Below, in pieces: positions 7,787 through 48,518 of a stretch of DNA of 64,000 nt (positions are counted from its first letter, which is position 1; each line of letters starts with the position of its first letter). Source of the stretch: an uncultured Verrucomicrobiae bacterium (lineage in GTDB: Bacteria > Verrucomicrobiota > Verrucomicrobiia > Chthoniobacterales > JAFAMB01); contig CAWIPH010000002.1 in NCBI GenBank assembly GCA_963837955.1, positions 3,360,001 to 3,424,000 of the forward strand, written 5' to 3'. The position numbers and the translations under genes are program-made. The notes beneath the pieces were generated by a model. It was not told where the DNA came from and searched no databases. It worked only from the letters and a program-made list of their open reading frames with translations.

Positions 7787-7909
7787 GGGAGGGATCGCGT
7801 CCCCGCGATCCGTTGTGGCCGGACCCAAGCGCGTTTGTATACCAAGGGTTAAATTGCCTCCCCCAGGTTAGAGATCGTTTTCTCGGCGCGCGGGGACGCG
7901 CGCCCTCCC
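7787..7909. repeat. REP doublet (inverted pair of 26-bp palindromic units)
   Basis: GGGAG-GGATCGCG-TCCC-CGCGATCC-G at 7787-7812, and inverted GGGAG-GGCGCGCG-TCCC-CGCGCGCC-G at 7884-7909. Confidence 0.75.
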
Positions 7910-7960
7910 GGCGATGGAGCAGGCAAACCATTCTTATGTTGACGCGTATTGCGTGGCCGC

Positions 7961-8012
7961 GGGACTGGGCTACTATCACCATGTCCCTTCCGGGACGGGG
8001 CCGTCTTTGCTT
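7961..8012. repeat. Partial arm of the ~230-bp palindromic element family
   Basis: ACTGGGCTACTATCACCATGTCCCTTCCGGGAC resembles the right arm ACTGGGCTACTTTCATCGGGTCCCTCCGGGAC at 47968-47999. Confidence 0.55.
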
Positions 8013-8126
8013 CTGTTCCCAATCCCAAGGCTGCGCACACGCGTCAACCTAAGGCCGCCGTTTGATTCTCTGCCCCAATACGGTCGCCCACGTTGATGCC
8101 TTTCAGATATTTGTCTGCCGCCAGGC

Positions 8127-8158
8127 AAAAAAAACGGCAGCCGCAAAGCTGGCTGCCG
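8127..8158 (-). terminator. Rho-independent terminator of the S53 peptidase gene
   Basis: On the minus strand CGGCAGCCAGCTTTGCGGCTGCCG forms a hairpin followed by a T8 run. Confidence 0.75.
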
Positions 8159-8200
8159 GATCGTGTATTTTTCTAAGTTTGGCGAGTTACCAAAACACGG

Positions 8201-32960: not shown

Positions 32961-33152
32961 ATGCACGACGCAATCCGGACCTACGCAGAACTCCAACAGC
33001 ACATGCACGACGCCCTACGCGAGCAAAATCCGGAGTGGGTCGCGCCGAACGGCGACAGTCCTACCTGCCATTCCTATGAGAGGCGATTCGCCGACCTGCT
33101 AGCCCTTTTTGCCGAGAGCGGAACACGCCGGGCCCAAACCCTAAACGGTTAA
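32961..33152 (+). CDS. Small hypothetical protein
   Basis: ELQQHMHDALREQNPEWVAPNGDSPTCHSYERRF resembles a small-protein family I recall from Chthoniobacterales. Confidence 0.65.
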   Translation: MHDAIRTYAELQQHMHDALREQNPEWVAPNGDSPTCHSYERRFADLLALFAESGTRRAQTLNG

Positions 33153-33396
33153 CTATCGCTCGCTATGTCTGATACTCTCTGCCGGCAAGCCGTCTACACT
33201 AGCGGCTTTTCTCTCATGCGCGTCATGATGCATGCGGTATGCCTGCTTCGCCGTCCTGGCAAAGCGGCCTTTTTCTTTGCTGGCATGCGCCGAGAATTCT
33301 CTATCCTGTGCCACCGATGTTAGCCTTCTCTCAAGAAAGAGGTGCTACCTCGGCCTTCAAGTCCGATGCAGTGCCGCTTTGCGGCGTCCACAGATC

Positions 33397-34080
33397 TCAT
33401 TTGTCCCCAAGATTGACAGGCTCCTTACTTGAACCGAAGTGGTCCACTTCAAACAGGCGCTGCATGTTCTGTTGGGCGGGTTCGTAATTTTTGTCGAGCT
33501 TGATCGCCCGGCCGTAGTACTTTTTCGCTTTGACGTAGTCCTCAAGTATCTCGGCCAAGACGCCAGCTAGATTGAATGCTTCGACCGACTTCGGGTTCAG
33601 CTCCGACGCCTTCACTAAGTGCAGCCGAGCCTTGGCAAACGCGCGCAGATTGAGGCAGCGCTTCGCCGCGGCTATGTGGGCGCTGAAAGTCTCGGCTGGT
33701 GTGTCGTCCTGTCGACCGTGCCGCTTTATAATTTCAGCCACAATGCTTCGAAATTCCTCGGGGCGAAGCGGTTTTTGCAGGAAGTCGATTGCGCCGAGTT
33801 TCATGGCCTTGACCGCATGGGTGACATCGCTGTACGCGGTAACGATCATCGCCGGGACTCCAATTCCGCTTTCGCGTATCTTTGCGAGCAGTTCTAATCC
33901 GTCCATCCCAGGCATCCGCATGGCGAGGATCGCAAGGGCGAATGAATGCGTAGCAAGCAACTGTACCGCCTGCTCTCCTGAACGGGCTTCAAAAATTTCG
34001 TAGCCTTCCGTTTCAAGCGTAATCCGAAAGTTCAGACGCACATTCGGCTCGTCATCGACAATGAGAAGCCGTTCATTCAT
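33397..34080 (-). CDS. Response regulator (REC plus TPR) with phosphoacceptor Asp replaced by Ala
   Basis: LIVDDE, ILAMRMPGMDG (A53), VTAY, FLQKP; C-terminal TPRs. Confidence 0.9.
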   Translation of the reverse strand: MNERLLIVDDEPNVRLNFRITLETEGYEIFEARSGEQAVQLLATHSFALAILAMRMPGMDGLELLAKIRESGIGVPAMIVTAYSDVTHAVKAMKLGAIDFLQKPLRPEEFRSIVAEIIKRHGRQDDTPAETFSAHIAAAKRCLNLRAFAKARLHLVKASELNPKSVEAFNLAGVLAEILEDYVKAKKYYGRAIKLDKNYEPAQQNMQRLFEVDHFGSSKEPVNLGDK

Positions 34081-34300
34081 GCGGTAACTCCGTTATTAGT
34101 CGTTGGAAGGTCAAAATAGAACTCGTTCCCCGCGTACTCTGCGGAGCCGATGTTTCCTCCGTGCGAAACGGCCATTTCTCCAGCGGTTGCGAGTCCAAGT
34201 CCCGTGCCTGTCGAGTCTTAGATGCCTGGAACGCGGAAGAGGCGCGAAAAAATGCGTGGTTGAAATTCTTTGGGGATACGGGCCCATGATCGAGCATGCT
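34077..34300 (-). pseudogene. Histidine kinase HATPase_c C-terminal remnant
   Basis: DHGP/IPKEFQPRIFSRLFRVPGI*DSTGTGLGLATAGEMAVSHGGNIG...EFYFDLP, with a frameshift and a stop. Its TGA overlaps the regulator ATG. Confidence 0.8.
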
Positions 34301-34325
34301 ATTCTTCGGTCGAAACAAGAACCTG

Positions 34326-34464
34326 AGCTAACCGCATGCCCGACCGGGTAGTTTCTCACAGGAATCTGGTTTTCCGCGAGTCCACCCAATGCTACTAACC
34401 AAAATACAGCGACTGAATTAGCATATCGCGAGCTTCGACTACCGAAACACTAGCAATCTGCGAG
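34326..34464 (-). promoter_or_regulatory. Degenerate sigma-54 promoter with paired enhancer boxes
   Basis: Minus strand CGGGCATGCGGTTAGCT (GG-N10-GC, 34342-34326). Boxes TAGCATATCGCGAG (34419) and TAGCAATCTGCGAG (34451) are 32 bp apart. Confidence 0.5.
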
Positions 34465-34608
34465 TCCCCAACATTTAAAAAGCGATTACTGCCGGCTTCA
34501 TTCTATGCTCTGAAGCAGCGCATCTTACTGGGGGCTTACTCTGATCTTTATCCCTCTTGTTGAATCGGATTATACTCGGTTTGGCGGAAGAGTAATCCTG
34601 AGTGAACT

Positions 34609-34711
34609 TCGCAGTCTGCGAGTGCTTACGATACTAGCTGTTAATGTAATCTGCCGCGCCCCTCGCAAAACAGTTTTATAAGGCGCAAATCAGCTTGGCA
34701 CGAGTAAAGCT
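34609..34711 (+). promoter_or_regulatory. Sigma-54-type promoter with enhancer box (relic kdp promoter)
   Basis: TCGCAGTCTGCGAG at 34609. CTTGGCACGAGTAAAGCT at 34694-34711 is 17/18 identical to the element upstream of kdpFABC. Confidence 0.65.
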
Positions 34712-34778
34712 CTGTGCCAAGTGTGGCGATGTCGGGTCGCCTCTAGCAATAAGTTGTCCGCTAGAAAGGGTTGAGCGT

Positions 34779-34948
34779 CAGCTCGATCGGGACGACACCA
34801 AGCGTGATGCAGCCGATAAACGTAAAGAGATAGACCAAACCTTGCGGGCGAACGCTTCGGCCCCGTTTGAGGGGCTGGTTGGTGACAAGTTTGTTAACGT
34901 GCTGGAATTAACCTCGAACTTTGTAAACGGTACGGAGTACCAAAATAA
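34779..34948 (+). pseudogene. kdpC 3'-end remnant
   Basis: QLDR-DDTKRDAADKRKEIDQTLRANASAPFEGLVGDKFVNVLE matches the intact KdpC end QLDRVASKWADDTKRDGAEVRKEIDQILQSNASAAFSGLAGEKFVNVLE. Confidence 0.85.
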
Positions 34949-34954
34949 TTTGAA

Positions 34955-35941
34955 ATGAGCGATCGACAACCACCAGAATTTATTTTGCAGCGTCAAGGGC
35001 AACCGATCTTTCGCCGATCATTCCTGTTTAGCCTGGTTGTTGGCATCGTCGTTGTGATCCTCATTGCCCTCTTCGCTCTCGATTCATACTTCGTCGTCGA
35101 ACCCACAGAGATGGCGGGTGTGCGACGCCTTGGACAAGTTATTACCACCAACCCCCTCGGACCGGGCCTGCATTTCAAGCTGCCGTTCATCGACCAGGTC
35201 GATCGGTTACAGGTGTCTTTGGACACGTTTAAGCTCGACAGGCTTACCGTGAACACAATCGATAACCAGCCGATAGCAGTGACTGTCGGTCTTACCTATC
35301 GCATTCCTCCCAAGGCGGTGCTGCCGCTTCTCTATGAGGTTGGCCGCGCGGGTAATTTTGATATTACAGAGAATTTCGAGCGGATCGTCGCCGATCGAAC
35401 CGCGAAAATTTTCGCCCAGCAGAATACGACTCGAATCAGTGAAAACCGCGACCAAATTTTAAACGCCCTCAAAACCCTTCTATCGAATGATCTCGGTACC
35501 CTCTACCACATAGAAGTGGTGGATTTCCAGATCGCCGGCATCATCTATTCAGATAGTTTCCGTGCTTCGGTTGAAGCTGCAGTTAAGGCTAAGAACGAGG
35601 CGGTTGCCGCCGAGAATACTGTGAATCGGATCCGATTCGAAGCTCAGCAAGCAGTCGAGCGGGCGAACGGCGAGGCCGCGGCGAAACTCAAATTGGCTGA
35701 TGCAGACCGCCAATCGACGATTTTGAGCGCTCAGGGCAGGGCCGAAGGAATACGGCTTGAGGGTGAATCACGTGCAGCAGTACTCCGCATGAATGCTGAA
35801 ATCCTGAAAACCAGCCCTCTCGTGATCGACCTCGCCAAAGCAGACCGTTGGAATGGTGCGTTACCACTGACTTTGCTCCAGGGTACTGGTACTATGCCAC
35901 TTTTGTCATTGCCGCCGCTCGAAACAACCGAAAAGAAGTGA
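34955..35941 (+). CDS. SPFH/prohibitin (band 7) family protein
   Basis: N-terminal TM, LGPGLHFKLPFIDQV, Ala/Glu-rich coiled coil (AQGRAEG), RWNGALP. Confidence 0.9.
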   Translation: MSDRQPPEFILQRQGQPIFRRSFLFSLVVGIVVVILIALFALDSYFVVEPTEMAGVRRLGQVITTNPLGPGLHFKLPFIDQVDRLQVSLDTFKLDRLTVNTIDNQPIAVTVGLTYRIPPKAVLPLLYEVGRAGNFDITENFERIVADRTAKIFAQQNTTRISENRDQILNALKTLLSNDLGTLYHIEVVDFQIAGIIYSDSFRASVEAAVKAKNEAVAAENTVNRIRFEAQQAVERANGEAAAKLKLADADRQSTILSAQGRAEGIRLEGESRAAVLRMNAEILKTSPLVIDLAKADRWNGALPLTLLQGTGTMPLLSLPPLETTEKK

Positions 35942-36396
35942 CGCGATCTTCGAGGGCTTGACGCCCTGTGATCTTCTTGCAAGCCAAGAGCAGCTTGAGA
36001 AAAAGCCTGGATTTCGCTCCGAATCGTCGTTGTGCCTGAGTCGTTCAACTTCGATCTCTTTATCAACTATTGCTGCGAGCACAACGGGCCGGGGTATATC
36101 TCGAAGCTCGTAGCCCCGCATCCGGAAAAAATACCGTGACTTCACTGGCGGTGAGAAACTCCGCGTCTTCTTCGTGGAAGACGAGGCCGGCGATAGGAAC
36201 GACTGGCAGCAAAGGACTCTAGACGGCATTCGTTCGAGCCGTCTCCTGTCCGCAACCGCAGACCCCAAGGAGATCTCACTCTCGCGATCTTCGGAGAAAG
36301 TCGCAAAGTCAGGTTGATTCGGAATGGCCGAGCATGCAGATAGGAAGGGCCTTGGGAACTTAGCCCATAAGGGGGAAGAGATGTGCTCCGCGACAA

Positions 36397-36592
36397 TCGT
36401 CCCGGAGGGACCCTATGAAAGTAGCCCAGTACGAAGTGCTGGGTTGGTGTCCAAAAAAAGCGGCCCGTCCCGGATGGGACGATCGACTCCTCCTCACGCT
36501 TGTGAAACCACACCCGAGAGACCAGGAGCCAAACGTTTCGATCGTCCCGGACGGACATCTCTTTTGCATCATGTCCCACCACTCGTACTGGG
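36397..36592. mobile_element. Palindromic MITE/REPIN-like element, right arm truncated
   Basis: Same family and orientation as 47773-47999: TCGTCCCGGAGGGACC..ATGAAAGTAGCCCAGTACGAAGTGCTGGG... Confidence 0.75.
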
Positions 36593-36636
36593 TTGGTCTT
36601 CAAACGGCGGACCACTGAGCGTCGCTCTTAAAGCTA

Positions 36637-36787
36637 TCGCAGTTTGCGAGCCTCCTTTTATGCACACCTCGCACGATGCCAGAATGAGAGCCTTCCCAGA
36701 AATCTTCGTCCAGGTCGCGGCTCGATAAAAACAGCTGGGCGATCCGCTGAGAAGTATCGCTCAGAGAAACTTGGCATGAGTAAAGCT
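36637..36787 (+). promoter_or_regulatory. Sigma-54-type promoter and paired enhancer boxes of kdpFABC
   Basis: TCGCAGTTTGCGAG (36637) and TCGCACGATGCCAG (36669) are 32 bp apart. CTTGGCATGAGTAAAGCT (GG-N10-GC) at 36770-36787. Confidence 0.7.
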
Positions 36788-37022
36788 AACTTCTCGTCGG
36801 CAGAGAAAGCCAATTAGTGAAACTGTTTTCAGCAATCCTCTTAGCTGAACGCAGTTAGTAGTTAACAGTTCGCGTTCTGGTGCTCCTCCTGCCCCAAGCG
36901 CGATACGTTGTTGGTAGTTCTGGCATACCCCCCTCTTGCTAGGACCAGACTTACGTCGTGGATGCTCGTGCTGCGATTGAGGGCAGCGGGGCCAGTCATT
37001 CTATCGGAAAGTATAAAATAGT

Positions 37023-37118
37023 ATGCAGCTCGAAATTTGGTTGCCAGCAATGTTTTTGCTGGGTCTGGTGTCAATGGGTGGGTGCTTTCTTTTCATGAAG
37101 GCATGCGAAGAAATCTAA
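37023..37118 (+). CDS. Small membrane peptide upstream of kdpF
   Basis: MQLEIWLPAMFLLGLVSMGGCFLFMKACEEI*, one TM helix. Too short for the ORF track. Confidence 0.7.
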   Translation: MQLEIWLPAMFLLGLVSMGGCFLFMKACEEI

Positions 37119-37130
37119 GGCAAAACGAAC

Positions 37131-37211
37131 ATGATCTTCCTAACGGCTCTTATAGCGCTCCTGCTCTTCATTTACTTGTTTGTTGCTCTGGTTCGTCCGG
37201 AATGGTTTTGA
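37131..37211 (+). CDS. kdpF: K+-transporting ATPase subunit F
   Basis: MIFLTALIALLLFIYLFVALVRPEWF* carries the KdpF signature YL..AL..PE.F. Confidence 0.88.
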   Translation: MIFLTALIALLLFIYLFVALVRPEWF

Positions 37212-37257
37212 ACCAGGCTGTTTGGTAACCACCTAACAATGGAAAGAGTTTAGAACC

Positions 37258-39075
37258 ATGTGGCTTCTACCGATTTCAATTCTTGTCGTAACGACATTAT
37301 TAGCAATCCCCCTGAGCAAATACTTAGCCTGGATAATGGACGGAAAGTATCGGCCATTACCATTTTTCCGTTCGATCGAGACCCGGCTAAATAGCGGTCC
37401 GCAAAATTGGAAACAGTATACCGTTTCCTTACTGCTGTTTAATACCGTTCTGTTCGTGTTCGGATTTATAGTGCTCTTTCTCCAGCCTTGGATGCCTTTG
37501 AATGGTCTAGGCAGAGGTATGCTGGCGCCGACTACGATCTTTCACAGCGTCGTGTCGTTCATGACCAATACCGATTTACAGCATTATTCGGGGGATCAAC
37601 ATTTTTCGAATTTCAGCCAGATCTTTTTCTGCCTGACCAACTTCTTTCTATCCGCTTCAATCGGTTTCTGTGGACTTTCGGCGATAATCAGGGCACTGCG
37701 GGGCGACTCCAAAATTGGAAACTTCTTCGTCGATATGTGGAGGGTGGTCATCTACACCTTCCTGCCGATCTCGTTTATATTAGCAATAGTCTTTCTGCAG
37801 CAAGGGAGCCCGATGACATTCGATAGCGCTCATCAGGTTTCCACTCTCGAGCCAGCCGCCATGGGCACTGGTGACAATGGACAGGTGAAGCAACAAACGA
37901 TTGTAGTAGGTCCTCTGGCTGCCTTTGTACCGATGAAACAGCTCGGCACGAATGGGGGCGGATTTTACGGCATGAATTCCGCCCATCCGTTCGAGAACCC
38001 GACGGACGTTACTAACTTTCTGTCCTGTATCGCGATGATGCTCTTCCCGTTCTCTCTCGTGCTGATGTACGGGCGAATGTTGAAGAGGATACGACACTCC
38101 GTGGTGATATTCGGCGTGATGGCCGTGCTGATGATCGGTACGGTGGCCTGGGCTATTTGGTTTGACACGCTACAGCCCAACCCAGGTCTGACCGGGCGCT
38201 CAACGGCTCAGACATATCAGATGCCAAGTCCAAACGCACCCGGAGGTAAACGGGATGTCACCCTACCGGCGGTAGCATCTTTGCCGGTGGATCAACACCT
38301 CGGTAATCTCGAAGGCAAGGAGATACGGTTCGGGACTTCAGCAGGTGCGACTTTTGCCGCTCTCACTGTCGATGTCACTGACGGGGCGGTAAATTGTGAG
38401 CACGATAGTCTCAATCCCATAGCTGCCTTGTCGCCGATGGTTGGCATGTGGCTAAACTGTATCTTTGGGGGCAAGGGCGTCGGCATGATTAACCTATTGC
38501 TCTTTTTGATAGTCGGCGTTTTCGTTGCCGGCCAGATGGTCGGGCGAACTCCCGAATATCTAGGTAGGAAAATCGGCGGCCGCGAGATGAAGCTGGCAAT
38601 GATTGCACTCCTCATTCACCCAATCATGATTCTTTGGCCGACTGGACTTTTTTCGGCAACTGACTGGGGTACCAAAGCAGAGAACAATCCAGGACCCCAC
38701 GGCTTCTCTGAGATCATGTACCAGTTTTCTTCTGCCTCGGCCAATAACGGTTCAGCCTTTGACGGACTCGGAGTCACCTATGGACTTAATAACAATCCGA
38801 ATCCTTCCCCGACGGCTGTGCCATGGGATATTGCTACCGGCCTGGTGATAATCATCAGTCGTTTTCTGCCGATCATTGCACCGATCGCAATGGCAGCAAG
38901 TCTTGGCGCGAAGAAGGCGGTTCCGTTTGGACTAGGCACCTTGCGTGACGACACAACGACGTTTGGGTTCCTACTATGCGCAACTATTCTAATTATCGGT
39001 TCCTTGTTATTCCTGCCGGTCGCCGCCCTCGGGCCGCTCGCGGAGCATTTGGGACCTATCCCGTTCGGGGGCTGA
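37258..39075 (+). CDS. kdpA: K+-transporting ATPase subunit A
   Basis: SFMTNTDLQHYSG, KQLGTNGGG, NSAHPFENP, EGKEIRFG, GRTPEYLG, SANNGSAF. Confidence 0.96.
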   Translation: MWLLPISILVVTTLLAIPLSKYLAWIMDGKYRPLPFFRSIETRLNSGPQNWKQYTVSLLLFNTVLFVFGFIVLFLQPWMPLNGLGRGMLAPTTIFHSVVSFMTNTDLQHYSGDQHFSNFSQIFFCLTNFFLSASIGFCGLSAIIRALRGDSKIGNFFVDMWRVVIYTFLPISFILAIVFLQQGSPMTFDSAHQVSTLEPAAMGTGDNGQVKQQTIVVGPLAAFVPMKQLGTNGGGFYGMNSAHPFENPTDVTNFLSCIAMMLFPFSLVLMYGRMLKRIRHSVVIFGVMAVLMIGTVAWAIWFDTLQPNPGLTGRSTAQTYQMPSPNAPGGKRDVTLPAVASLPVDQHLGNLEGKEIRFGTSAGATFAALTVDVTDGAVNCEHDSLNPIAALSPMVGMWLNCIFGGKGVGMINLLLFLIVGVFVAGQMVGRTPEYLGRKIGGREMKLAMIALLIHPIMILWPTGLFSATDWGTKAENNPGPHGFSEIMYQFSSASANNGSAFDGLGVTYGLNNNPNPSPTAVPWDIATGLVIIISRFLPIIAPIAMAASLGAKKAVPFGLGTLRDDTTTFGFLLCATILIIGSLLFLPVAALGPLAEHLGPIPFGG

Positions 39076-39132
39076 ATATAACCCTGACTAACTGGAACGC
39101 ATTTAACATTCCCTAAGAGAAAACTCACTCAG

Positions 39133-41295
39133 ATGGCAAAGGTATTGAATCCAGCTCAGGCTTCACGCGAGCTCACTACGCCGCCGGGACGACTCCCTTT
39201 CCGGCGGAAGAATCCCTTACTGGCACCGGGTACGGTAGGACCGGCCATAAAGCAGGCGTTTATCATGTTGCGCCCTGACATCCAGTGGAAGAACCCCGTG
39301 ATGTTTGTGGTGGAAGTAGGCGCTTTTCTAACCCTGTTTTACTTAATTCAAGCGTGTCTCGGGAAATCCGAGAGCCAGGTTTCGATTGGCTACTTCGTAG
39401 CGCTTGATATCTGGCTTTTTCTAACGGTGCTATTCGCAAATTTTGCGACGGCGGTAGCGGAAGCACGCGGCAAGGCGCAGGCGGAGTCGCTGAGGCGGGT
39501 ACGTCACGACACGATTGCGCATCGGCTGACGTCCCGCAACGGCATCGAGGAAGTTTCCTCGGCGGTTTTGCTGCCAGGCGATCAGGTTGTCGTAAAGGCA
39601 GGACAGTTTGTTCCCGGCGACGGCGAAATCGTCAAAGGCATTGCGTCGATCGATGAATCGGCCATAACCGGCGAGTCGGCCCCGGTCATTCGCGAGTCGG
39701 GAGGGGACCGGTCCGGGGTGACTGGAGGCACGCTGGTAGTCTCTGATCAAATAGTGATCAAGATCACCTCTGGTGCCGGGGAATCGTTTCTCGATCGGAT
39801 GATCGGGTTAGTTGAGGGAGCGATTCGGCAGCGCACACCGAACGAGATTGCGTTGACTTTGGTGCTGAGCGCTTTCTCACTCATCTTCCTCATCGTGGTG
39901 ATACCACTTTGGCCGATGGCGTTCAATGCCGAGCAGTACATGAAGAGCTATCTCGGCTTAACAGACCAATTGAAAAGTCTCGGTACCGACGTGCCAACTC
40001 TCATCGCGCTCCTGGTCTGTTTGATCCCGACAACTATTGGTGCTCTCTTAGCAGCAATCGGGATCGCCGGTATGGACCGCGCCCTTCGAGCCAACGTTCT
40101 CGCGAAAAGCGGGAAGGCGGTCGAGACCGCTGGTGACATTGACGTGGTATTACTCGATAAGACCGGAACTATCACAGTCGGAAATCGGCACGCTACCGCG
40201 TTTCTTCCAGTCGGGCAGTACGCCGCTGCCGACGTTGGTCGCCTGGCGTTCCTGGCCTCGGCCGCTGACGAAACGCCGGAGGGGAAGACGATTGTCACTA
40301 AAGCCAAAGAGCTGCAACCGCCTAGACAGGCGGCCATGAGCGTGCCAGACGGTTCCAAGTTCATACCTTTTACCGCTCAAACTCGCATGAGCGGAGTCGA
40401 TCTTCCGGACGGAAGTAAAATCCGCAAAGGGGCAGCAGACGCTATCGTCGACTTTGTCGAGGAGCAGCACGGCAGTATCCCAGCAGAGCTTGATGGGTTA
40501 GTTACCCGAGTCGCTTCGGAGGGCGCCACACCGCTCGTTGTTGCTGAAAATAATCAGATGGTGGGCGTCGTAGTGCTCGAAGACGTCTTGAAACCTGCGA
40601 TGAACGAGCGTTTTGAACGGCTTCGCAGAATGGGTTTACGCACGGTCATGATCACCGGAGATAACCCTTTGACGGCTGCGACCATTGCGAAGAAAGCGGG
40701 CATCGATGACTTCCTGGCGCAAGCAACCCCGGAGGCAAAGCTAGCTTACATCCGCAAAGAGCAAGCAGAAGGCAAGCTAGTTGCCATGATGGGCGATGGC
40801 ACTAACGACGCGCCGGCCCTCGCGCAAGCCGATGTCGCCCTGGCCATGAACGCCGGAACGCAGGCCGCCAAAGAAGCCGCCAACATGGTCGACCTGGATA
40901 GCGATCCGACCAAGCTGATCGAAGTGGTCGAAATCGGCAAACAACTCTTAATGACTCGAGGAGCGTTAACCACCTTTTCCGTCGCCAATGATGTAGCGAA
41001 ATATTTCGCGATCATTCCGGCGCTCTTCGCCGGCACCTTGCCGTGGCTGAAAGCGGTTGATGTCATGCAGTTGCATTCGCCGACGTCAGCAATTCTATCG
41101 GCGGTCATTTTCAACGCTCTCATTATTCCAGCATTGATTCCGGTAGCCCTTAGAGGGGTTAGTTACAAGCCTTTGGGAGCAGACGCGTTGCTGCGAAGAA
41201 ACTTATTAGTCTGGGGACTAGGGGGCGTCATCCTTCCGTTCCTAGGCATTAAACTCATCGATCTGATAATGGTCGCCTTCCATTTGGTTGCTTGA
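39133..41295 (+). CDS. kdpB: K+-transporting ATPase subunit B
   Basis: NPVMFVVE, TGESAPV, CLIPTTIG, DKTGT, GDGTNDAPAL. Confidence 0.97.
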   Translation: MAKVLNPAQASRELTTPPGRLPFRRKNPLLAPGTVGPAIKQAFIMLRPDIQWKNPVMFVVEVGAFLTLFYLIQACLGKSESQVSIGYFVALDIWLFLTVLFANFATAVAEARGKAQAESLRRVRHDTIAHRLTSRNGIEEVSSAVLLPGDQVVVKAGQFVPGDGEIVKGIASIDESAITGESAPVIRESGGDRSGVTGGTLVVSDQIVIKITSGAGESFLDRMIGLVEGAIRQRTPNEIALTLVLSAFSLIFLIVVIPLWPMAFNAEQYMKSYLGLTDQLKSLGTDVPTLIALLVCLIPTTIGALLAAIGIAGMDRALRANVLAKSGKAVETAGDIDVVLLDKTGTITVGNRHATAFLPVGQYAAADVGRLAFLASAADETPEGKTIVTKAKELQPPRQAAMSVPDGSKFIPFTAQTRMSGVDLPDGSKIRKGAADAIVDFVEEQHGSIPAELDGLVTRVASEGATPLVVAENNQMVGVVVLEDVLKPAMNERFERLRRMGLRTVMITGDNPLTAATIAKKAGIDDFLAQATPEAKLAYIRKEQAEGKLVAMMGDGTNDAPALAQADVALAMNAGTQAAKEAANMVDLDSDPTKLIEVVEIGKQLLMTRGALTTFSVANDVAKYFAIIPALFAGTLPWLKAVDVMQLHSPTSAILSAVIFNALIIPALIPVALRGVSYKPLGADALLRRNLLVWGLGGVILPFLGIKLIDLIMVAFHLVA

Positions 41296-41326
41296 ACTTT
41301 CACTATTTACTCTTGGGGATATTTAT

Positions 41327-42343
41327 ATGTTTCGTTATCTGACAAAGAGCATCTTGTTATTAGGACTAACTATTGTTATTTGCTGTGTTATCTATCCGCT
41401 GGCAGTCTGGGGCATCGGACAAGTCTTTTTTCCGTTCCAGGCCAACGGTAGTTTGTTGAAGGGTCCGGATGGATCGGTCGTTGGTTCGAAGTTGATCGCT
41501 CAACCATTCACCAAGGACGAGTATTTCCAACCACGTCCTTCAGCCGCGTCCTATGACGCGTCTGCGTCGGCCTCGTCCACCTATGCAGCTTCCAACTATC
41601 TGTTGCGCAACCGCGTTGCTACCGTGCTAGGACCGATTGTGAAGTACCGAAGTGGTCCGAAAACGGGGCAACTAGTTGCACCCGACATCGAGGCTTGGTT
41701 CCAGCAGGACAAATTCGCGGGTAACCAACAAATTGTCGCGCAATGGGCTGACCTGCACAACGCCGTGGCCCTGGCTTGGGTGAATGCGGACCCAACGCAC
41801 GCCCAATATGTAGACGCGTGGGCAAAGGCCCATCCCGATTTAGTCGCCCAGTGGGTCAAGGATAACCCGAGCACGCCGCAACCGAAGGCAACGGATCTCG
41901 CAGTCGTTTTCTTCGAGAACTTCTCCAAGGATCATCCTGGGATGTTCCCTTCAGCCGTGACCCAAACGGGTACTGACGGTAAGGCCCAGACCTCCATCCA
42001 ACCGGTAAAGGACGGAACCGATGTGCAAAGCAACTTTTTCGAAATGTGGCGGCAAGATCATCCGGATGCTGACCTGCAAGAAGTTCCCGCTGATCTGGTA
42101 ACAGCATCTGGCTCCGGTCTCGATCCTCATATCACGTTACAAAACGCCGAGTTCCAACTGGATCGCGTTGCATCCAAATGGGCGGACGATACCAAACGGG
42201 ATGGTGCGGAGGTTCGCAAGGAGATCGATCAAATTTTGCAATCCAACGCTTCCGCGGCTTTTTCGGGTCTAGCCGGAGAGAAGTTTGTGAACGTATTGGA
42301 AGTAAACTTGGAGCTTTGTAGTCGGTACGGTGTACCGAAATAA
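41327..42343 (+). CDS. kdpC: K+-transporting ATPase subunit C (enlarged)
   Basis: FPFQANGSL, GSKLIAQ, YFQPRPSA, VPADLVTASGSGLDPHIT, VNVLEVN. Confidence 0.93.
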   Translation: MFRYLTKSILLLGLTIVICCVIYPLAVWGIGQVFFPFQANGSLLKGPDGSVVGSKLIAQPFTKDEYFQPRPSAASYDASASASSTYAASNYLLRNRVATVLGPIVKYRSGPKTGQLVAPDIEAWFQQDKFAGNQQIVAQWADLHNAVALAWVNADPTHAQYVDAWAKAHPDLVAQWVKDNPSTPQPKATDLAVVFFENFSKDHPGMFPSAVTQTGTDGKAQTSIQPVKDGTDVQSNFFEMWRQDHPDADLQEVPADLVTASGSGLDPHITLQNAEFQLDRVASKWADDTKRDGAEVRKEIDQILQSNASAAFSGLAGEKFVNVLEVNLELCSRYGVPK

Positions 42344-42502
42344 GTGGTAGAGAAAAAGTAGCGGAAATCAGATAGGAAATCAGCGTTCCGCGGGGCGACT
42401 CAGATTGATCTCGATCTGGGTTTGCCCTGCGGCGTGCTTTTCGGCGGTCGCAAGCGCGTGGTCTTTAGGTGCGCCGCTACCACTTTGAATTGCCGACGCG
42501 AC

Positions 42503-43393
42503 CTAACTGTGCGTTTGAACGTCCATACCACTCACTACCCGCACAAAATTCAAAGTGACGGCTTTGGCCGTCCCCTTTTTCCAGCCCAGTCCGACGGAAA
42601 GATCCAGGGTGCTGTCGGCGATCTCACGATAGACCAGACCGGGCGGCCCACATTCTCGATAACTGGAAGGAATCAAGGCTATGCCAAGACCAGAAGCAGC
42701 CATCAGTAACAAGGTAGTTAGATCGGACGCTCCTCGAACGAGATTGACGGAAATCCTCCGCTTCTTGAGATATGGCAAGATGACGGCGTAAAGATTGTCA
42801 GAGTCGTCTTGCAGCGCAACAACCGATTGATGACGTAAATCCCGGAGTTGAAGTCTCTCTTTTCCGGCCAGCGGCAGGTTGGCCGCGAAGGCCGCAATCA
42901 TCGCGCAGCTACCCAATTTTATCACTTCCAGGTTCGGATCGTTCAGCGGCAGCGGCAGAATGCCGGCGTCCAAATCGCCGGCGCGAAGAGCCGCGATTTG
43001 GTCGGTCATGGATTGGGTGACGATCGAACAGCGGACGGCCGGGTACTGCTTTTGGAAATTCTGCAGGAGGTGCGGCAGTATCGTAAACGTCGTCCCGTCC
43101 TCACAGCCAATCCGTAGCAACCCTTTCTCGCCGGTGCCATGTCGCTTGACCTCGATCCGGGCAGTCTCTAGTTCCCGAAAAATTCTTTCGGATTGCTCGA
43201 GGAGGGCCTGACCGGCCGGCGTTAGCTCGACATGACGCCGGGTTCGCACCAAGAGCGGGGTTCCCAATTCGTCCTCCAGATTTTTGATGCTCTTGCTCAG
43301 AGGCGGTTGGGAAACGCCCAACAAGGCAGCCGCTCGCCGAAAATGCAGAGTTTGCGCAACCGTTCGAAAATACCGGAGCTTCACTAGATCCAC
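42503..43393 (-). CDS. LysR family transcriptional regulator
   Basis: LRYFRTVAQTLHFRRAAALLGVSQPPLSKSIKNLE. Confidence 0.93.
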   Translation of the reverse strand: MDLVKLRYFRTVAQTLHFRRAAALLGVSQPPLSKSIKNLEDELGTPLLVRTRRHVELTPAGQALLEQSERIFRELETARIEVKRHGTGEKGLLRIGCEDGTTFTILPHLLQNFQKQYPAVRCSIVTQSMTDQIAALRAGDLDAGILPLPLNDPNLEVIKLGSCAMIAAFAANLPLAGKERLQLRDLRHQSVVALQDDSDNLYAVILPYLKKRRISVNLVRGASDLTTLLLMAASGLGIALIPSSYRECGPPGLVYREIADSTLDLSVGLGWKKGTAKAVTLNFVRVVSGMDVQTHS

Positions 43394-43470
43394 GTCTGAT
43401 ACTTTTGCGGAATCAATCGAGGTTGTAAAGAGTCTTGGAGAGATCAGCCCGTGGTCAGCAGGTTGCCCTC

Positions 43471-44340
43471 ATGAATCCTTCTATCTCTACCTCAGTACTG
43501 TTTCTCGGAGCTCCAGGACTTATTGGAAACCATGTGATTCCAGCTCTTGCCGCGGGCGATTTTTCGGTGATGGCCGGCAGTCGACGCGGGCTGGCGATCG
43601 GCGGTGCGACTGGCGTCGCTGTCGATATGCGAGACCCCGAAACTCTGGCGCGGACGATGCAGGGGATCGCCACGGTTGCGTTCGTTATTCCGGACGTCAT
43701 CGATATGGAGGCTCTCGGCCTGAACGTCGTTGCCGCGGCTCAATCCGCCGGGGTGAAACGGCTTCTCTGGTTCTCCAGCTTTGGCGCAAGCCCGAAAAAT
43801 GAAGCTCGTTTCAGTCGCCGCCACCCCGTGATTGATGAAGCAGTCCGCTCCTCTAGCATTCCGTACACGATATTGCGTCCGAACTTTTTCATGCAGGATT
43901 TCACGGCCTTCTACGGGGACACTATCCGGACGACCGGAACAATTTTCCTGCCGCTGGGGGATGCCCGGATCAGTCATCTCGATCTGCGCGACCTCGGCGC
44001 AGCAGCCGTCGCGGTGCTGCGGGAGGATCGGCATCTCGGCAACACTTACGATCTGAGCGGGCCGGAAGCGTTACATACCTCCGAGGTGGCAGAACAGATC
44101 GGATCAGCGATTGGTCGACCGATTCGCTACGAATCGATCTCCGCTGCCGCGCTGGAAGCTGAGTTGCGCGCTGGCGGTGCTGATCCTTACTTTGCTGCAG
44201 GCTTGGCGGAATTGTACGCCTGGATCCGGGACTCCGGACTAGGTAGTGAGGTTACAGGAGCAACGGAGCAGTTGCTCGGTCGCAAGCCAACTCCTTTCCG
44301 AAAATTCGCCGTCGATCATCGATCGGCGTGGCTGGGTTAG
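43471..44340 (+). CDS. NmrA-like NAD(P)H-binding oxidoreductase
   Basis: LGAPGLIG, TILRPNFFMQ, YDLSGPEAL. Confidence 0.9.
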   Translation: MNPSISTSVLFLGAPGLIGNHVIPALAAGDFSVMAGSRRGLAIGGATGVAVDMRDPETLARTMQGIATVAFVIPDVIDMEALGLNVVAAAQSAGVKRLLWFSSFGASPKNEARFSRRHPVIDEAVRSSSIPYTILRPNFFMQDFTAFYGDTIRTTGTIFLPLGDARISHLDLRDLGAAAVAVLREDRHLGNTYDLSGPEALHTSEVAEQIGSAIGRPIRYESISAAALEAELRAGGADPYFAAGLAELYAWIRDSGLGSEVTGATEQLLGRKPTPFRKFAVDHRSAWLG

Positions 44341-44375
44341 TTCCGGGACTTAGCAAGTTTTTCAAGGGGCGCCAA

Positions 44376-44879
44376 ATGATCAACAGCCTACTCTTTGCTT
44401 TGACCTTTATCTCGGCACTCAGCTGCGGGCTGATGGCCGGTGTCTTTTTCGCTTTTTCGGCGTTCGTCATGAATGGCCTTAGCCGCCTGCCAGCCACGCA
44501 GAGCATTGCTGCCATGCAATTCATAAATGCCGCGGCGTTCAATCCTTTGTTTGGGGCGGCGTTTTGCGGAACGACTGCTGCGTGCGTTCTTCTGGGTGTT
44601 GCTTCGCTGTTCATGTGGCACAAACCCGCTGGGATCTTCCATCTTGCCGGGAGCCTGCTCTATCTCGTCGGCGCGATTCTGGTAACACTCGTATTCAATC
44701 TACCGTTGAACGGGGGGCTAGCAGCCGTCGACGCGACGAGCGCCGATGGCGCCAACCTATGGGCTGGCTACTTCACCAACTGGATGGTGTGGAATCACGT
44801 GCGAACAGCCGGGGCCCTTGCGGCCGCGGCATCGCTCACCATCGCGCTCTTTTTATCACACAACGAGAGAGCAGCGTGA
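44376..44879 (+). CDS. DUF1772 / anthrone oxygenase family membrane protein
   Basis: GVFFAFSAFVM, AMQFIN, NLPLN, WMVWNHVRT. Confidence 0.88.
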   Translation: MINSLLFALTFISALSCGLMAGVFFAFSAFVMNGLSRLPATQSIAAMQFINAAAFNPLFGAAFCGTTAACVLLGVASLFMWHKPAGIFHLAGSLLYLVGAILVTLVFNLPLNGGLAAVDATSADGANLWAGYFTNWMVWNHVRTAGALAAAASLTIALFLSHNERAA

Positions 44880-45021
44880 TTCGGCTGTAGATGGATTTGA
44901 TGGATGAGTCCGCGGATGGACCCGGTCCGTTGCTCGAACCGGGTCCTGATGCGGGATGTAATCCCGCTCGCTCCAATCGGCGCTCGCATGTCCCCTCCAG
45001 GTCGGGCACATTATCAACAGC

Positions 45022-45648
45022 ATGCGCGAAATTCTTCCCGGCATCTTCACGTGGGGTTCGACCTACGCCGACAGGCCGTGGGACTTAAACGGTTACGCGA
45101 TCAGGCTCGAAGAATGCACGATACTCGTTGACCCACCGGCACCCGAAGATGACTGGTCGAGCTTCAACCTGATTAAGCCAATCACGAAGATCGTCCTCAC
45201 CAACCGTGACCATGTCCGGGACGCCGAGCTGTTTCGGACACGCTTCGGCGCTCAGCTCGTCGTGGGGGCGGATGAGGTGGCTCAACTCGCCCCCATTGCG
45301 GTCGACGAAGCGGTTAGCGAAGGAGACCTGATTGCTGGTGCTCTCCGCGTGATTCATCTCCCCGGCAAATCGGCCGGCGAGATCGGGCTGTACTTTAGTC
45401 AAGCACACCATGCGCTCTCGCGGGAGATGGGCGGCATCTTGCTCCTCGGCGATGCGATCATCGGGAACCCGCCGGGCGCACTGGGTCTGATTCCGGAGCC
45501 CAAGCTCGATGACTCCTCGAAGCTCAAACGCTCGCTACGCAAACTGCTCGATTACGACTTTGATGTATTACTGCTCTGCGATGGCCAACCTCTACTGAGC
45601 GGGGGCAAACGGAAAGTCGTCGAGTTTTTGAACACGCTGGCTGGATAG
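45022..45648 (+). CDS. Metallo-beta-lactamase-fold protein (atypical motif)
   Basis: ILVDP, LTNRDHVRD, LPGKSAGE, LLGDA, LLCDG. Confidence 0.8.
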   Translation: MREILPGIFTWGSTYADRPWDLNGYAIRLEECTILVDPPAPEDDWSSFNLIKPITKIVLTNRDHVRDAELFRTRFGAQLVVGADEVAQLAPIAVDEAVSEGDLIAGALRVIHLPGKSAGEIGLYFSQAHHALSREMGGILLLGDAIIGNPPGALGLIPEPKLDDSSKLKRSLRKLLDYDFDVLLLCDGQPLLSGGKRKVVEFLNTLAG

Positions 45649-45807
45649 ATCACATACGAGGCGCCATCTCGGAAGTCTTAACCCGCGAAGCGCTCGTGTC
45701 TCGAACTCCGATGTTTCCCGTTCAACGAATGCCCGATTGCTGGACCGACCGGGAAATCCCAAGGGCTGACCTGCACAACGCCGCGGGAATTGTAGGACTG
45801 CTCCGAC

Positions 45808-47253
45808 TTAGCTGGCGCCGTGGCGTCGCTTGATCCGCTTGTTTTGTACTTTGCGTTGGGGGAACTCTCGTTTGTCCTTATGGAAGTAACAAATCTCGAC
45901 CAGCGTCGGCCAGATTTCCAGGGTAGCATGAATTTGGCTCACCACGTCATCAACGATCCGCGACACATTTTGTTGAAAAAAATCCGGTTCGAAACCATAG
46001 AAGGAGCGCGCCAGATTTTCGGCAAATAACAGCAACGCCTCTTTTCGCTCGGGGATTTTCGTCGAAGCTGCAGCGTTCAGGACACGAGTATGAACTGCCG
46101 TGATGCTTTGCAGAATTTCTTCGCTATCCTGCAGCGTTACTTCACCCTCGTACTCGAATCGGATCGATAAATCATCAACCGATACCAGTGACGACTTAAT
46201 TTTTTTCTTCAACAACGTACAGATCTCTTCGTTGAAGACGTCCGTTGCCAACGGACTTCGCATATAGTTGTTCTTGATGTGAGTCTGCACGGCGTCGGTA
46301 TGAGCTGCCACAATCCCGTCCTGCTGTATCCACAATCGATAGATATAATCCTCAAAGCGGAGCCGGGTGGGAAAAAAAGGAGGCAGGCCGAGCCGGTTAT
46401 CGTAACCAGCAACTCCGCAATCGATTCGCCAATTCTTGTTGGTGACAACTGGCCGGAAATTTTCCAGCACGTAGACCTCATTGATCTCGTGCAAATCTTT
46501 TTGCCGTTGATCTTCGTCATGCAGATACATCTCCACGTAGTCGAGGGCGTCGATGTCGTTGGTGCCGGTTCGAAAACTCTGCGCTATTTTAACGATTGCA
46601 TTTTTCGAGACTGGCCCATCCTCGAGTAGGAGCGAGTTCTCTATAACAAATTCTTTGGTCACGTTTGTCTCGAGGTCCATCGACGTGTCGACCAGAAGGT
46701 TCCCGGATTCGAAATTAGCCGGCAACTCGCTCACCTTTTTTCCCAGCACATCTTTGAATGATGTAAGAATGTCGAACGACTTGTCGATGTATCCGTTTTC
46801 GCCCGGTTTTTTTAAACGGCCGCGACTGACCTCCTCCGGTTTCAACGATTCGGGACTGCTCTCGACCAGCGCATACGGACGCATATCATCATCCGCGCTG
46901 ACCAGGAATGCGCCCAAGGTGTAGATCAGCGAGAAATTGCGGTTGCCTCCATAACTCGGCCGAAAAATGGTGCGCACGAGCGACTCGAGCTTTCTGTCGC
47001 GGAGTTTCCTGTTCAAGAACTTGAGGAATTGCTCCTTCTCCTGAGGACCGACGTAGTAGAGGTCGTTGACCGTTCTGGTCTTCTCCAGCTTTGAATAATA
47101 CTTCTCGTGATTGGCTAAGCTTGAATCGTCGAAGACAACGATCTTCACCGAGTGACCGTTGCTCCAAAAATTTGCGTCGTATTCCTCAATTGTCTCGGCC
47201 ACATCACGCAAGCGATAGGTGGGGATGGCGAATATCGTATCTGCGGTTTTCAT
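45808..47253 (-). CDS. Uncharacterised protein with GT-A (GT2/RGP-like) glycosyltransferase motifs
   Basis: FAIPTY, VVFDDSS, YGGNRN, VSADDD and RFEDY occur in GT-A order. Confidence 0.75.
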   Translation of the reverse strand: MKTADTIFAIPTYRLRDVAETIEEYDANFWSNGHSVKIVVFDDSSLANHEKYYSKLEKTRTVNDLYYVGPQEKEQFLKFLNRKLRDRKLESLVRTIFRPSYGGNRNFSLIYTLGAFLVSADDDMRPYALVESSPESLKPEEVSRGRLKKPGENGYIDKSFDILTSFKDVLGKKVSELPANFESGNLLVDTSMDLETNVTKEFVIENSLLLEDGPVSKNAIVKIAQSFRTGTNDIDALDYVEMYLHDEDQRQKDLHEINEVYVLENFRPVVTNKNWRIDCGVAGYDNRLGLPPFFPTRLRFEDYIYRLWIQQDGIVAAHTDAVQTHIKNNYMRSPLATDVFNEEICTLLKKKIKSSLVSVDDLSIRFEYEGEVTLQDSEEILQSITAVHTRVLNAAASTKIPERKEALLLFAENLARSFYGFEPDFFQQNVSRIVDDVVSQIHATLEIWPTLVEICYFHKDKREFPQRKVQNKRIKRRHGAS

Positions 47254-47498
47254 TAAGTAAAAGCGTCGGATCGTTCGGAAGCGCCGGGGGTCCGTCAGGA
47301 CTGGATGAGCCGGGTGCAAAACCCGATTCGTTAAGCGCACCATCGACTTTCACGTCGAGGAGAAAGGAGGGACTGATAGTCTCTCTTGGTTCCGCATCGC
47401 GCGGGTTAGTTTGAGCGGACTCATTCCAAGAGTCATGCGCTCGTTCATTGCGCCAGAAATATTTGAGCTTTCCACGAATAAGGCGGTCTGGTGTAAAA

Positions 47499-47639
47499 AG
47501 CGTTTAGCGTGCCAAATCCGGCCTAGCACTCCTAATCACTTCGTTTCCAGGGAGATAAGACCGAGTTATCGCCATCATAAGTCTTGGCGAGATTTGCAAC
47601 CTGCGAGCCGCAGCCGAGGTCGATGTCGCAAAGAGCAAG
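47499..47639 (-). promoter_or_regulatory. Sigma-54-type promoter with paired enhancer boxes
   Basis: Minus strand TTGGCACGCTAAACGCT (GG-N10-GC, 47515-47499). Boxes TTGCAACCTGCGAG (47594) and TCGCAAAGAGCAAG (47626) are 32 bp apart. Confidence 0.65.
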
Positions 47640-47772
47640 GATTCTTCTGGCGAGTAAGCATGCTCTGATTGAAACAGAGACGGTCCCATCCCGACAGGGA
47701 CATCGGATAGGGCCCAGTCCAGCGGCTGCACATCTGCCTCAACTTAAGGCGCAGAAACATGCGCAGAGACTC

Positions 47773-47999
47773 GTCCCGGAGGGACCGAATGAAAGAAGCC
47801 CAGTACGAAGTGCTGGGTGGCGTTCAAAAAAGCGGCCCGTCCCGGACGGGACGATCGACGGCTGCTTACGCTGGTGAAGCCGCGTACGAGAGGACTAGGA
47901 GCCAAAACGCTTCGATCGTCCCGGACGGGACGGACGTCTCTTTTTGCATTATTTCCCAGCACTTCGTACTGGGCTACTTTCATCGGGTCCCTCCGGGAC
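47773..47999. mobile_element. ~230-bp palindromic MITE/REPIN-like element
   Basis: 45-bp terminal inverted repeats with 3 mismatches, plus an inner ~22-bp inverted repeat CCGTCCCGGACGGGACGATCGA. No coding capacity. Confidence 0.85.
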
Positions 48000-48518
48000 C
48001 AATCCACTCGCACATATCTCCTCCTTTTATGTCTGCCGCACATCCGCGACCGCGGGCCGTGGCAAACAGGCAGAGAATCGCTCTCAGGGAACGGCTCCAG
48101 AATGACAAGGGCCCCTGGCAATCTGACGGTCTTTAGGCCTCCGGGACTAAGAAGAAGTAATCCCTCCGGGTAGGGAATAAAAGACCCCTTCCGCTAATAG
48201 CGGCAGAACGTGCTCACCATTACTATCCATACAGTAGTTTCGGTTAGTCCGAATATCATTAGAGGATCGACGAATTGAAAAATGGTGCAGGTGGAGCGGT
48301 TATGGATAAACGAGTTGCTTTTCAACAAACTAAAACAATATCCGATCACCCCTTACTAATCGGGGAGATTCTCCGAAGAGCCGCAACGCGGAATACTCGG
48401 AAGGCGAAATGGCGAGCATTCTTTAGCAGGATAAGAATCTTCTGATAGATCGTCGCAAATTGAAAGTTGGCCCAAGACGACCTCACTGCGTTATCGATAT
48501 GCCTCATTTACCAAAGAT

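Follow-up and report, generated by a model that had tools for sequence, protein, structure and literature searches.

The window analysed here is a stretch of 64,000 nucleotides (C2:3360001-3424000) from the genome of an uncultured Verrucomicrobiae bacterium, which consists of two contigs (C1 and C2; 5.62 Mb, 54% G+C). The subject is a set of GG-N10-GC elements, resembling sigma-54 promoters, and of short boxes upstream of them, which accompany a kdpFABC operon and neighbouring genes in the window. Control of the Kdp potassium pump is taught as that by KdpD and KdpE at a sigma-70 promoter. An original prediction, made from the letters of the window, had instead proposed a sigma-54/enhancer regulon around kdp, independent of KdpE and with its activator encoded outside the window. 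Positions without a contig prefix are those of the window, and handles beginning with G denote related genomes. The features concerned are the following.

33397..34080, minus strand: REC-TPR response regulator, intact, no DNA-binding domain (Pfam Response_reg and TPR)
34101..34277, minus strand: histidine-kinase relic, the C-terminal HATPase_c end only, with an in-frame stop
34326..34342, minus strand: P1, sigma-54-type promoter CGGGCATGCGGTTAGCT, weak in its -24 element, ahead of the kinase relic and the REC-TPR gene
34419..34463: tandem boxes TAGCATATCGCGA and TAGCAATCTGCGA, 32 bp centre to centre, between the divergent P1 and P2
34609..34621: single box TCGCAGTCTGCGA, perfectly palindromic, with the GG of P2 82 bp downstream
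34695..34711, plus strand: P2, sigma-54-type promoter TTGGCACGAGTAAAGCT, upstream of the SPFH gene
34955..35941, plus strand: SPFH/Band 7 membrane protein, 328 amino acids (aa) (Pfam PF01145, E 3.5e-25)
36637..36681: tandem boxes TCGCAGTTTGCGA and TCGCACGATGCCA, 32 bp spacing, upstream of the window kdp operon
36771..36787, plus strand: P3, sigma-54-type promoter TTGGCATGAGTAAAGCT of the window kdp operon
37023..37118, plus strand: 31-aa hydrophobic open reading frame (ORF) ending KACEEI, directly before kdpF
37131..42343, plus strand: window kdpFABC, a divergent copy (kdpF 37131-37211, kdpA 37258-39075, kdpB 39133-41295, kdpC 41288-42343)
45808..47253, minus strand: 481-aa cytoplasmic protein with a predicted glycosyltransferase-A (GT-A; nucleotide-sugar enzyme) fold, start ATG 47253, not 47343
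47499..47515, minus strand: P4, sigma-54-type promoter TTGGCACGCTAAACGCT, upstream of the 481-aa GT-A protein
47594..47638: tandem boxes TTGCAACCTGCGA and TCGCAAAGAGCAA, 32 bp spacing, 87 and 119 bp from the GG of P4

The four GG-N10-GC elements and the seven boxes of the original prediction were all recovered at their positions, and three box pairs are indeed exactly 32 bp apart. The strict consensus that it gave for the boxes holds in four of the seven, but not in those at 34419, 36669 and 47626, which deviate from it once or twice each. The box is better described as a 13-bp inverted repeat, TCGCA-N3-TGCGA, from which the boxes at 34609 and 36637 differ at no position, those at 34451, 36669 and 47594 at one, and those at 34419 and 47626 at two. 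The common promoter form in the window is TTGGCAYG-N6-GCT, the exception being P1 with CGGGCATG; TGGCAYG-N6-GCT is matched by three of the four promoters, the fourth (P1) having GGGCATG. P1 is thus correctly located, but its -24 element reads GGGCAT and not TGGCAT; three sister species have CTGGCATG there, and the counterpart in G002, G003 and G004 is CTGGCATGC(G/A)GTTAGCT. The element that had been placed at 34694 is present, the element proper being TTGGCACGAGTAAAGCT at 34695-34711; this SPFH promoter has a single box nearby, a perfect palindrome. An identical P2 element precedes the SPFH orthologue in G003 and G004, and the P4 counterpart in G001, G003 and G004 is TTGGCACGTT(A/T)AACGCTTT. 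The centres of the 34419/34451 boxes lie 85 and 117 bp from the GG of P1, and those of the 36637/36669 boxes 130 and 98 bp from that of P3; the former pair is kept in G002, G003 and G004, the latter in G003 and G004, and the 47594/47626 pair in G001, G003 and G004.

Seven such promoter units were found in the genome, four in the window and three beyond it:

C1:202966, minus strand: promoter of the C1 unit, boxes 203045/203077, heading the other kdp operon
C2:372563, minus strand: promoter with boxes 372644/372676, preceding the gene of a 139-aa secreted protein
C2:1876509, plus strand: promoter with boxes 1876371/1876403, an orphan copy with no recognisable gene after it

By arithmetic on the coordinates, the proximal box centre lies 82-100 bp from the -24 GG in all units, and the distal one 117-132 bp.

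The arrangement of these elements is not random. In the window, boxes with at most one mismatch number 11 against 4.32 expected, and TGGCAYG-N6-GCT occurs three times against 0.28 expected; neither number was reached in any of 100 shuffles. Genome-wide, with 12 simulated third-order Markov genomes as the null, there are six box pairs at exactly 32 bp (simulated mean 0.33), and in a scan of offsets from 20 to 44 bp the offset of 32 accounts for these six pairs, the remaining 24 offsets together for 12. All six pairs sit 40-260 bp upstream of a sigma-54-type promoter; box-to-promoter pairs within this range number 13 (1.08 simulated), and units of a tandem pair plus promoter number six, with none in any of the 12 simulations. 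The strict form T[CAT]GCA-N3-TGCGAG has 13 matches on both strands of the genome, eight of them inside the units described. Perfect TCGCA-N3-TGCGA palindromes stand before a strict promoter in 4 of 11 cases genome-wide, as compared with 0 of 2 for the control palindrome GTGCA-N3-TGCAC and 0 of 8 for TTGCA-N3-TGCAA. With a looser promoter pattern, 16 box-promoter pairs are found at 10 promoters, and 13 of the 16 belong to the seven units.

The C1 unit heads an operon that encodes, in this order, a histidine kinase, a REC-TPR regulator, a 27-aa peptide, kdpF, kdpA, kdpB, kdpC and a KdpD-like non-kinase protein. The kinase (601 aa) has two transmembrane helices around a periplasmic loop of about 150 aa, followed by HAMP, PAS, HisKA and HATPase domains; the REC-TPR response regulator has 227 aa, and the KdpD-like protein 380 aa, without the kinase part. 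Full-length KdpD was not found in the genome, where the only PF02702 match lies in a 383-aa open frame, and no OmpR-type (Trans_reg_C) regulator is present at either kdp locus, as would be expected if control were independent of KdpE. The genome also contains rpoN (PF04552 at 194.5 bits), on which the original prediction depended, and encodes nine full sigma-54 activators (PF00158 matches, whole genome). One of these is located beside the C1 kdp operon and hence outside the window, where an activator had been anticipated:

C1:204038-205354: candidate NtrC-type activator gene, intact, with REC, AAA+ and Fis-type helix-turn-helix (HTH) domains

A peroxiredoxin gene separates it from the C1 box pair, upstream of which it is located at a distance of about 1 kb. 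Its domains match Response_reg (1.3e-28), Sigma54_activat (3.1e-66) and HTH_8 (2.2e-6), and the motifs GESGTGKS and GAFTGA are intact.

Orthologues of the candidate activator, with 61-92% identity, are present in 20 of 40 relatives, the next-best matches being at most 54% identical. In eight relatives from three families (G001, G004, G006, G011, G012, G024, G030 and G037) the orthologue adjoins the operon of kinase, REC-TPR, kdpFABC and short kdpD, so that a sigma-54 activator near kdp, for which the original prediction had advised looking in relatives, does exist there. Fifteen relatives were examined for the sites, chosen because they carry the kinase/REC-TPR/kdpFABC operon. A GG-N10-GC element is found upstream of the kinase gene in all 15, and a TCGCA-type box with at most one mismatch in 12; two (G006 and G030) have a perfect GTGCA-N3-TGCAC palindrome, and the remaining one (G037) imperfect palindromes only. 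Boxes and promoter are therefore conserved upstream of orthologous kdp operons in other genera, and the sequence separating them has diverged. The sites persist where the activator gene is unlinked from kdp (G008, G015 and G016). In contrast, G039 and G028, from two sister families, have no activator orthologue and carry a full KdpD and an OmpR-type KdpE after kdpC; tandem boxes and promoter were not found at their kdp loci.

Within the genus, the tandem pattern (at most three mismatches) has 7, 2, 4, 9 and 8 sites in five genomes, as against none in each with the reversed-pattern control. A listing of twenty promoter units from relatives was selected by the motif itself, and is illustrative rather than a count. 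Next to the kdp operon of G002, G003 and G004 lies an island that comprises the genes of the SPFH protein, the GT-A enzyme and the activator, the REC-TPR paralogue together with its relic, and the unit of the small secreted protein, each with boxes and a promoter of its own. In G001, the kdp operon and the activator gene are separated by the GT-A gene. The window therefore shows one functional island in rearranged form.

The boxes drift in other lineages, where the CA-N3-TG core is kept and the outer bases are changed. GTGCA-type boxes occur in a contig from a metagenome-assembled genome (MAG) labelled Planctomycetales, and TTGCA-N3-TGCAA palindromes in a Desulfobacterales MAG, in which an activator homologue (51% identical) lies beside kdp. 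The HTH of activators from TCGCA lineages reads SRT(I/V)...YRRKK, and that of activators from GTGCA or TTGCA lineages (T/S)L...YRKRK. Within this genome the SRTI...YRRKK helix signature is unique to the candidate activator; in its nearest paralogue the signature is YRKRK, and the gene of this paralogue is preceded by a TTGCA-N3-TGCAA palindrome. This co-variation of helix and box fits direct recognition of the boxes by the activator.

Taken together, rpoN, the non-random and conserved modules and the candidate activator support in silico a sigma-54/enhancer regulon around kdp. We consider it quite probable that the elements of the window are part of a sigma-54 regulon for high-affinity potassium uptake, driven by the activator and kinase encoded on C1. 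In the proposed mechanism, the NtrC-type regulator from C1:204038-205354 would bind the TCGCA-N3-TGCGA palindromes as dimers, the palindromes being mostly paired at 32 bp and their proximal centres lying 82-100 bp upstream of the -24 GG. When phosphorylated, it would assemble into an ATPase ring and open the TTGGCAYG-N6-GCT promoters, at which transcription would depend on sigma-54 and begin at the predicted start sites. Its likely partner is the histidine kinase (two transmembrane helices, HAMP and PAS) that the C1 operon encodes first, and low potassium is the presumed signal. Because the C1 operon, with the kinase, would itself be a target, positive feedback would be expected. The predicted regulon comprises the C1 operon, the window kdpFABC, the SPFH gene, the REC-TPR paralogue after the deleted kinase, the GT-A enzyme, the small secreted protein of C2:372563 and the orphan at C2:1876509, which repeats the kdp promoter and leader.

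Several observations weigh against this interpretation. Counted singly, boxes are no more frequent in the genome than in the simulations (244 against a mean of 275.5), the background frequency that the original prediction had named as counting against a regulon; it is the paired and promoter-linked arrangement that is enriched. Nine of the box sites outside the units were inspected (seven perfect palindromes and two strict-consensus sites), seven of them with no candidate promoter and two with weak candidates, one of which is inside a 151-aa ORF; these nine were considered as regulon members and are treated as chance, their promoters being absent or weak. A good promoter, TTGGCACGACTCATGCCTA, with a one-mismatch box 154 bp upstream (C2:2442852/2443012), is one of the three pairs from the looser scan that fall outside the seven units, and is a possible further member. 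Within the units, the -24 element of P1 is degraded in this genome, the SPFH promoter P2 has only one nearby box, and the proximal box distances form two classes, 82-87 and 98-100 bp, which are not whole helical turns apart. The orphan unit at C2:1876509 stands before no recognisable gene, and at least one unit may therefore be a relic. Among the relatives, G018 (86% complete) has boxes but no detected activator orthologue; the lack of an orthologue in box-carrying relatives may reflect incomplete assembly. The co-variation of helix and box is confounded by shared ancestry, and we infer the binding of the activator to the boxes from synteny and this co-variation alone. Finally, no RNA run was listed for the window region 34300-37300, and the four DNA metagenome runs that were listed contained at most 0.06 of the sampled words.

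The best-surviving alternative is that the regulon is real and its signal is not potassium limitation, but, for example, envelope or osmotic stress sensed through the periplasmic domain of the kinase, with kdp as one output. The kinase, with its periplasmic domain of about 150 aa, HAMP and PAS, is not the C-terminal half of a KdpD; the regulon extends to an SPFH protein, a GT-A enzyme and a secreted protein; and, according to the available text on Desulfovibrio vulgaris (PMC3333781), its kdp operon is targeted by two other regulators as well. However, the targets here include two kdp operons, the conserved operon ends in relatives with the gene of a KdpD-like non-kinase potassium sensor, and the module as a whole replaces KdpD/KdpE in these lineages. 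This explanation is regarded as unlikely, though it deserves to be kept in mind.

It is less likely still that the promoters are true sigma-54 promoters whose boxes are bound by another regulator, be it the nearest paralogue, encoded at C2:823456-824778, any of the seven remaining activators, or a protein that is not an activator. With nine full activators in the genome there is a choice of candidates; the paralogue shares 50% identity with the candidate and resembles it in the C-terminal HTH; and in G008, G015 and G016 the boxes are still there with the candidate orthologue far from kdp. Yet synteny with a kdp operon, in the eight relatives, is found only for orthologues of the C1 activator, the paralogue has the helix signature and upstream palindrome of the TTGCA/GTGCA lineages, and the two families without the activator orthologue are also without the boxes and have KdpD/KdpE.

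That the modules are mostly non-functional relics of a segmental duplication of one kdp promoter region is highly improbable: the P3 region and the orphan at C2:1876509 are alike over about 250 bp, a stretch that takes in roughly the first 75 nt of the leader, with no recognisable gene after the orphan, the P2 and P3 promoter strings are nearly identical, and P1 precedes a gene relic, but the P4, C1 and C2:372563 units have only boxes and promoter, not the intervening sequence, in common with the others, every unit type is found together with its own gene throughout the genus, the kdp unit has been retained between genera despite diverged flanks, and the exact 32-bp spacing is kept in six of six pairs.

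Under the preferred reading, of a potassium regulon driven by the C1 activator, a further and more tentative step may be taken. The kinase, the REC-TPR protein, the NtrC-type activator and the non-kinase KdpD might together constitute a four-part alternative to KdpD/KdpE, with the non-pump targets as accessory factors of potassium homeostasis, which we hold to be possible but somewhat doubtful. The four-part set is kept in the host family and two sister families, and homologous sets occur in the Planctomycetales- and Desulfobacterales-labelled MAG contigs. If this were true, the SPFH protein, the GT-A enzyme (with a fold akin to that of sugar-nucleotide mutases), the small secreted protein and the micro-peptide ending in KACE would be unrecognised accessory factors. 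The model would tie four proteins of unknown role to potassium physiology, namely the REC-TPR regulator, the SPFH protein, the widespread, family-less GT-A enzyme and the micro-peptide before kdpF. It also provides a sequence-level regulon model in a little-studied soil lineage, with a named activator, a 13-bp operator and a fixed 32-bp tandem geometry, for which the sister families with KdpD/KdpE offer a natural comparison.

Three known systems may be compared with the present one. At glnAp2, NtrC has two dyad sites about three helical turns apart, about 100-140 bp upstream of a -24/-12 promoter. The REC-AAA+-Fis-HTH activator, the paired dyad sites and the -24/-12 promoter are shared with this enteric system, whereas the recognition sequence, signal and targets differ; against the NCBIfam ntrC model the candidate activator scores 373, below the equivalog cut-off of 558.6. 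With KdpD/KdpE the present system shares the target operon, and the N-terminal sensor domain of KdpD is kept as the separate 380-aa protein; the promoter here is instead of the sigma-54 type, and the canonical pair persists in two sister families of the order. The 380-aa protein aligns to positions 3-370 of the 373 of NCBIfam NF038185 (KdpD-like non-kinase potassium sensor), but its score of 350 is below the cut-off of 550.

The closest precedent is DVU3334, a sigma-54-dependent response regulator of D. vulgaris Hildenborough, for which Rajeev et al. 2011 (PMC3333781) report control of the kdp operon to which it belongs. The same source gives its site as the palindrome CGTTACATTTTGTAACG, of TTACA type (Table S7), with the motif kept in two other species, and describes the kdp kinase as apparently split into a sensor/Usp ORF and a kinase ORF, besides the two other regulators that also target kdp. 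DVU3334, with GAFTGA, is listed under potassium uptake in the text seen of Kazakov et al. 2015 (PMC4641369). As far as the published descriptions go, both systems have a GAFTGA NtrC-type regulator encoded with kdpFABC, both have KdpD split into a non-kinase sensor and a separate kinase, and in both the own kdp operon is targeted (here, as predicted) through a palindrome with a CA-N3-TG core, the half-sites being TTACA there and TCGCA here. In contrast to the DVU3334 system, the present one has an additional REC-TPR gene in the operon, a kinase with transmembrane, HAMP and PAS parts, and boxes in tandem 32 bp apart; the phylum is different, and the predicted regulon is wider, including the other kdp operon, the SPFH gene, the GT-A enzyme and the secreted protein.

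This one D. vulgaris result, from DNA affinity purification with microarray (DAP-chip), is the only documented sigma-54 alternative found in the literature searched: for sigma-54 together with kdp, or sigma-54 promoters in Verrucomicrobia, nothing beyond it was found, bioRxiv supplements being outside the scope of the search. Two further papers were discarded as precedents, one on Chlamydia with kdpFABC in its reference list only, and Francke et al., in which kdp is named only in connection with the nitrogen-related phosphotransferase system (PTS-Ntr). The novelty implied by the original prediction is therefore reduced, since control of kdp by a sigma-54/NtrC-type regulator with a split KdpD has been published for DVU3334; what is new relative to that case, as judged from the predictions made here, is the operator, the REC-TPR component, the wider regulon and the phylum. 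The extra components seen here, such as REC-TPR, are not described in the full-text literature searched.

Among the genes behind the window promoters, those following P1 bear out the "decayed two-component unit" of the original prediction, with a kinase relic that contains an in-frame stop and then an intact REC-TPR gene. By tblastn, the relic aligns at 57% identity with residues 536-595 of the C1 kinase (601 residues), and the window REC-TPR protein is a paralogue of that of the C1 operon, with 61% identity. Since the relic occurs in G004 too, the loss of the kinase is old. The SPFH protein scores 89.5 bits with PF01145 (cut-off 23.6), and also has weak HflC/HflK-like matches, under the cut-offs. 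In G004 (L066, G004:C309, about 1500-1780) the P2-type promoter and the SPFH gene are separated by a kdpF-like short ORF, MIYLTLFL...IPPEW, which hints that the SPFH unit arose beside a duplicated 5' end of kdp.

In the window kdp operon, KdpA, KdpB and KdpC were identified by Pfam and KdpF by TIGR02115. The copy is 38% identical to that on C1 in KdpA and 59% in KdpB, and its KdpA type is restricted to the same genus among the relatives searched. KdpC (41288-42343) has 351 aa, and the KdpC profile matches it in two stretches, which implies an insertion of about 150 aa. No kdpD, kdpE, sensor or regulator gene follows the window kdpC; the next gene is a convergent LysR gene. Counterparts of the 31-aa ORF precede kdpF in the C1 operon (27 aa; L017 4285-4368, minus strand) and in G037 (L057), of another family; these ORFs of 27-31 aa end in (K/W)ACE(E/K)(I/V). 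No NCBIfam match was found for the 31-aa ORF, and the peptide may serve as an additional small subunit or in regulation. G037 (L057, G037:C1, about 6100-8900) has about 3 kb of extra ORFs between REC-TPR and the small peptide/kdpF, and these sit behind their own GG-N10-GC element and imperfect palindromes. The fold of the kdp leader is not unusual (z = -0.82).

The start of the 481-aa protein behind P4 was placed at 47253 because its homologues are about 481-485 aa long, covering 94% of the 511-aa ORF. The protein matches no Pfam or NCBIfam family, and no PDB sequence below E 0.03; Glycos_transf_2 is touched by 3 of 28 aligned homologues, with a best E of 0.0021. Its AlphaFold2 model has a predicted local distance difference test (pLDDT) score of 92.4, and the best Foldseek matches in the PDB are the GDP-sugar mutase MtdL (2.1e-9), rice UDP-arabinopyranose mutase UAM2 (2.1e-6) and GlfT2 (1.3e-5). 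Because the global template-modelling (TM) scores are modest (0.35-0.53), only the fold class is claimed. In an acidic DxD-type motif, D121 and D123 are invariant among the homologues and D122 is at least 90% conserved. From the model, we are confident in predicting a GT-A-fold nucleotide-sugar enzyme; of the "uncharacterised glycosyltransferase" of the original prediction, the fold therefore stands, but membership of a Pfam or curated glycosyltransferase family does not.

For the unit at C2:372563 (C2:372536-372572), outside the window, our own count leaves about 2 nt between the predicted sigma-54 start and the ATG of the 139-aa secreted protein, which suggests a nearly leaderless mRNA. A 234-aa ORF had been taken as the first gene of this unit, and was rejected as a spurious Arg/Gly-rich frame in favour of the 139-aa one (L018 8154-8573, minus strand). 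The orphan at C2:1876371-1876600 (L019 4370-4720) is a near-copy of the window kdp boxes, promoter and start of the leader; it is followed by a decayed small-peptide start, MQLE.WL, and faces a convergent dehydrogenase gene.

A partly palindromic dispersed repeat of about 230 bp is present in the window at 36397-36592 and 47761-47999, and also at C1:194022-194293; another copy adjoins the C2:2443012 promoter. In Rfam, the region 33000-48500 has three sub-threshold matches only, with no riboswitch in the kdp leader; two of the three, to Acido-Lenti-1 (20-22 bits against a gathering score of 37), lie inside the repeat and were discarded. Two query stretches of the repeat gave 402 BLAST alignments, with more than 40 distinct places among the 70 listed. 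The repeat looks like a miniature inverted-repeat transposable element (MITE), and probably accounts for the ORFs at 36142-36615 and 36324-36728, which would then be artefacts.

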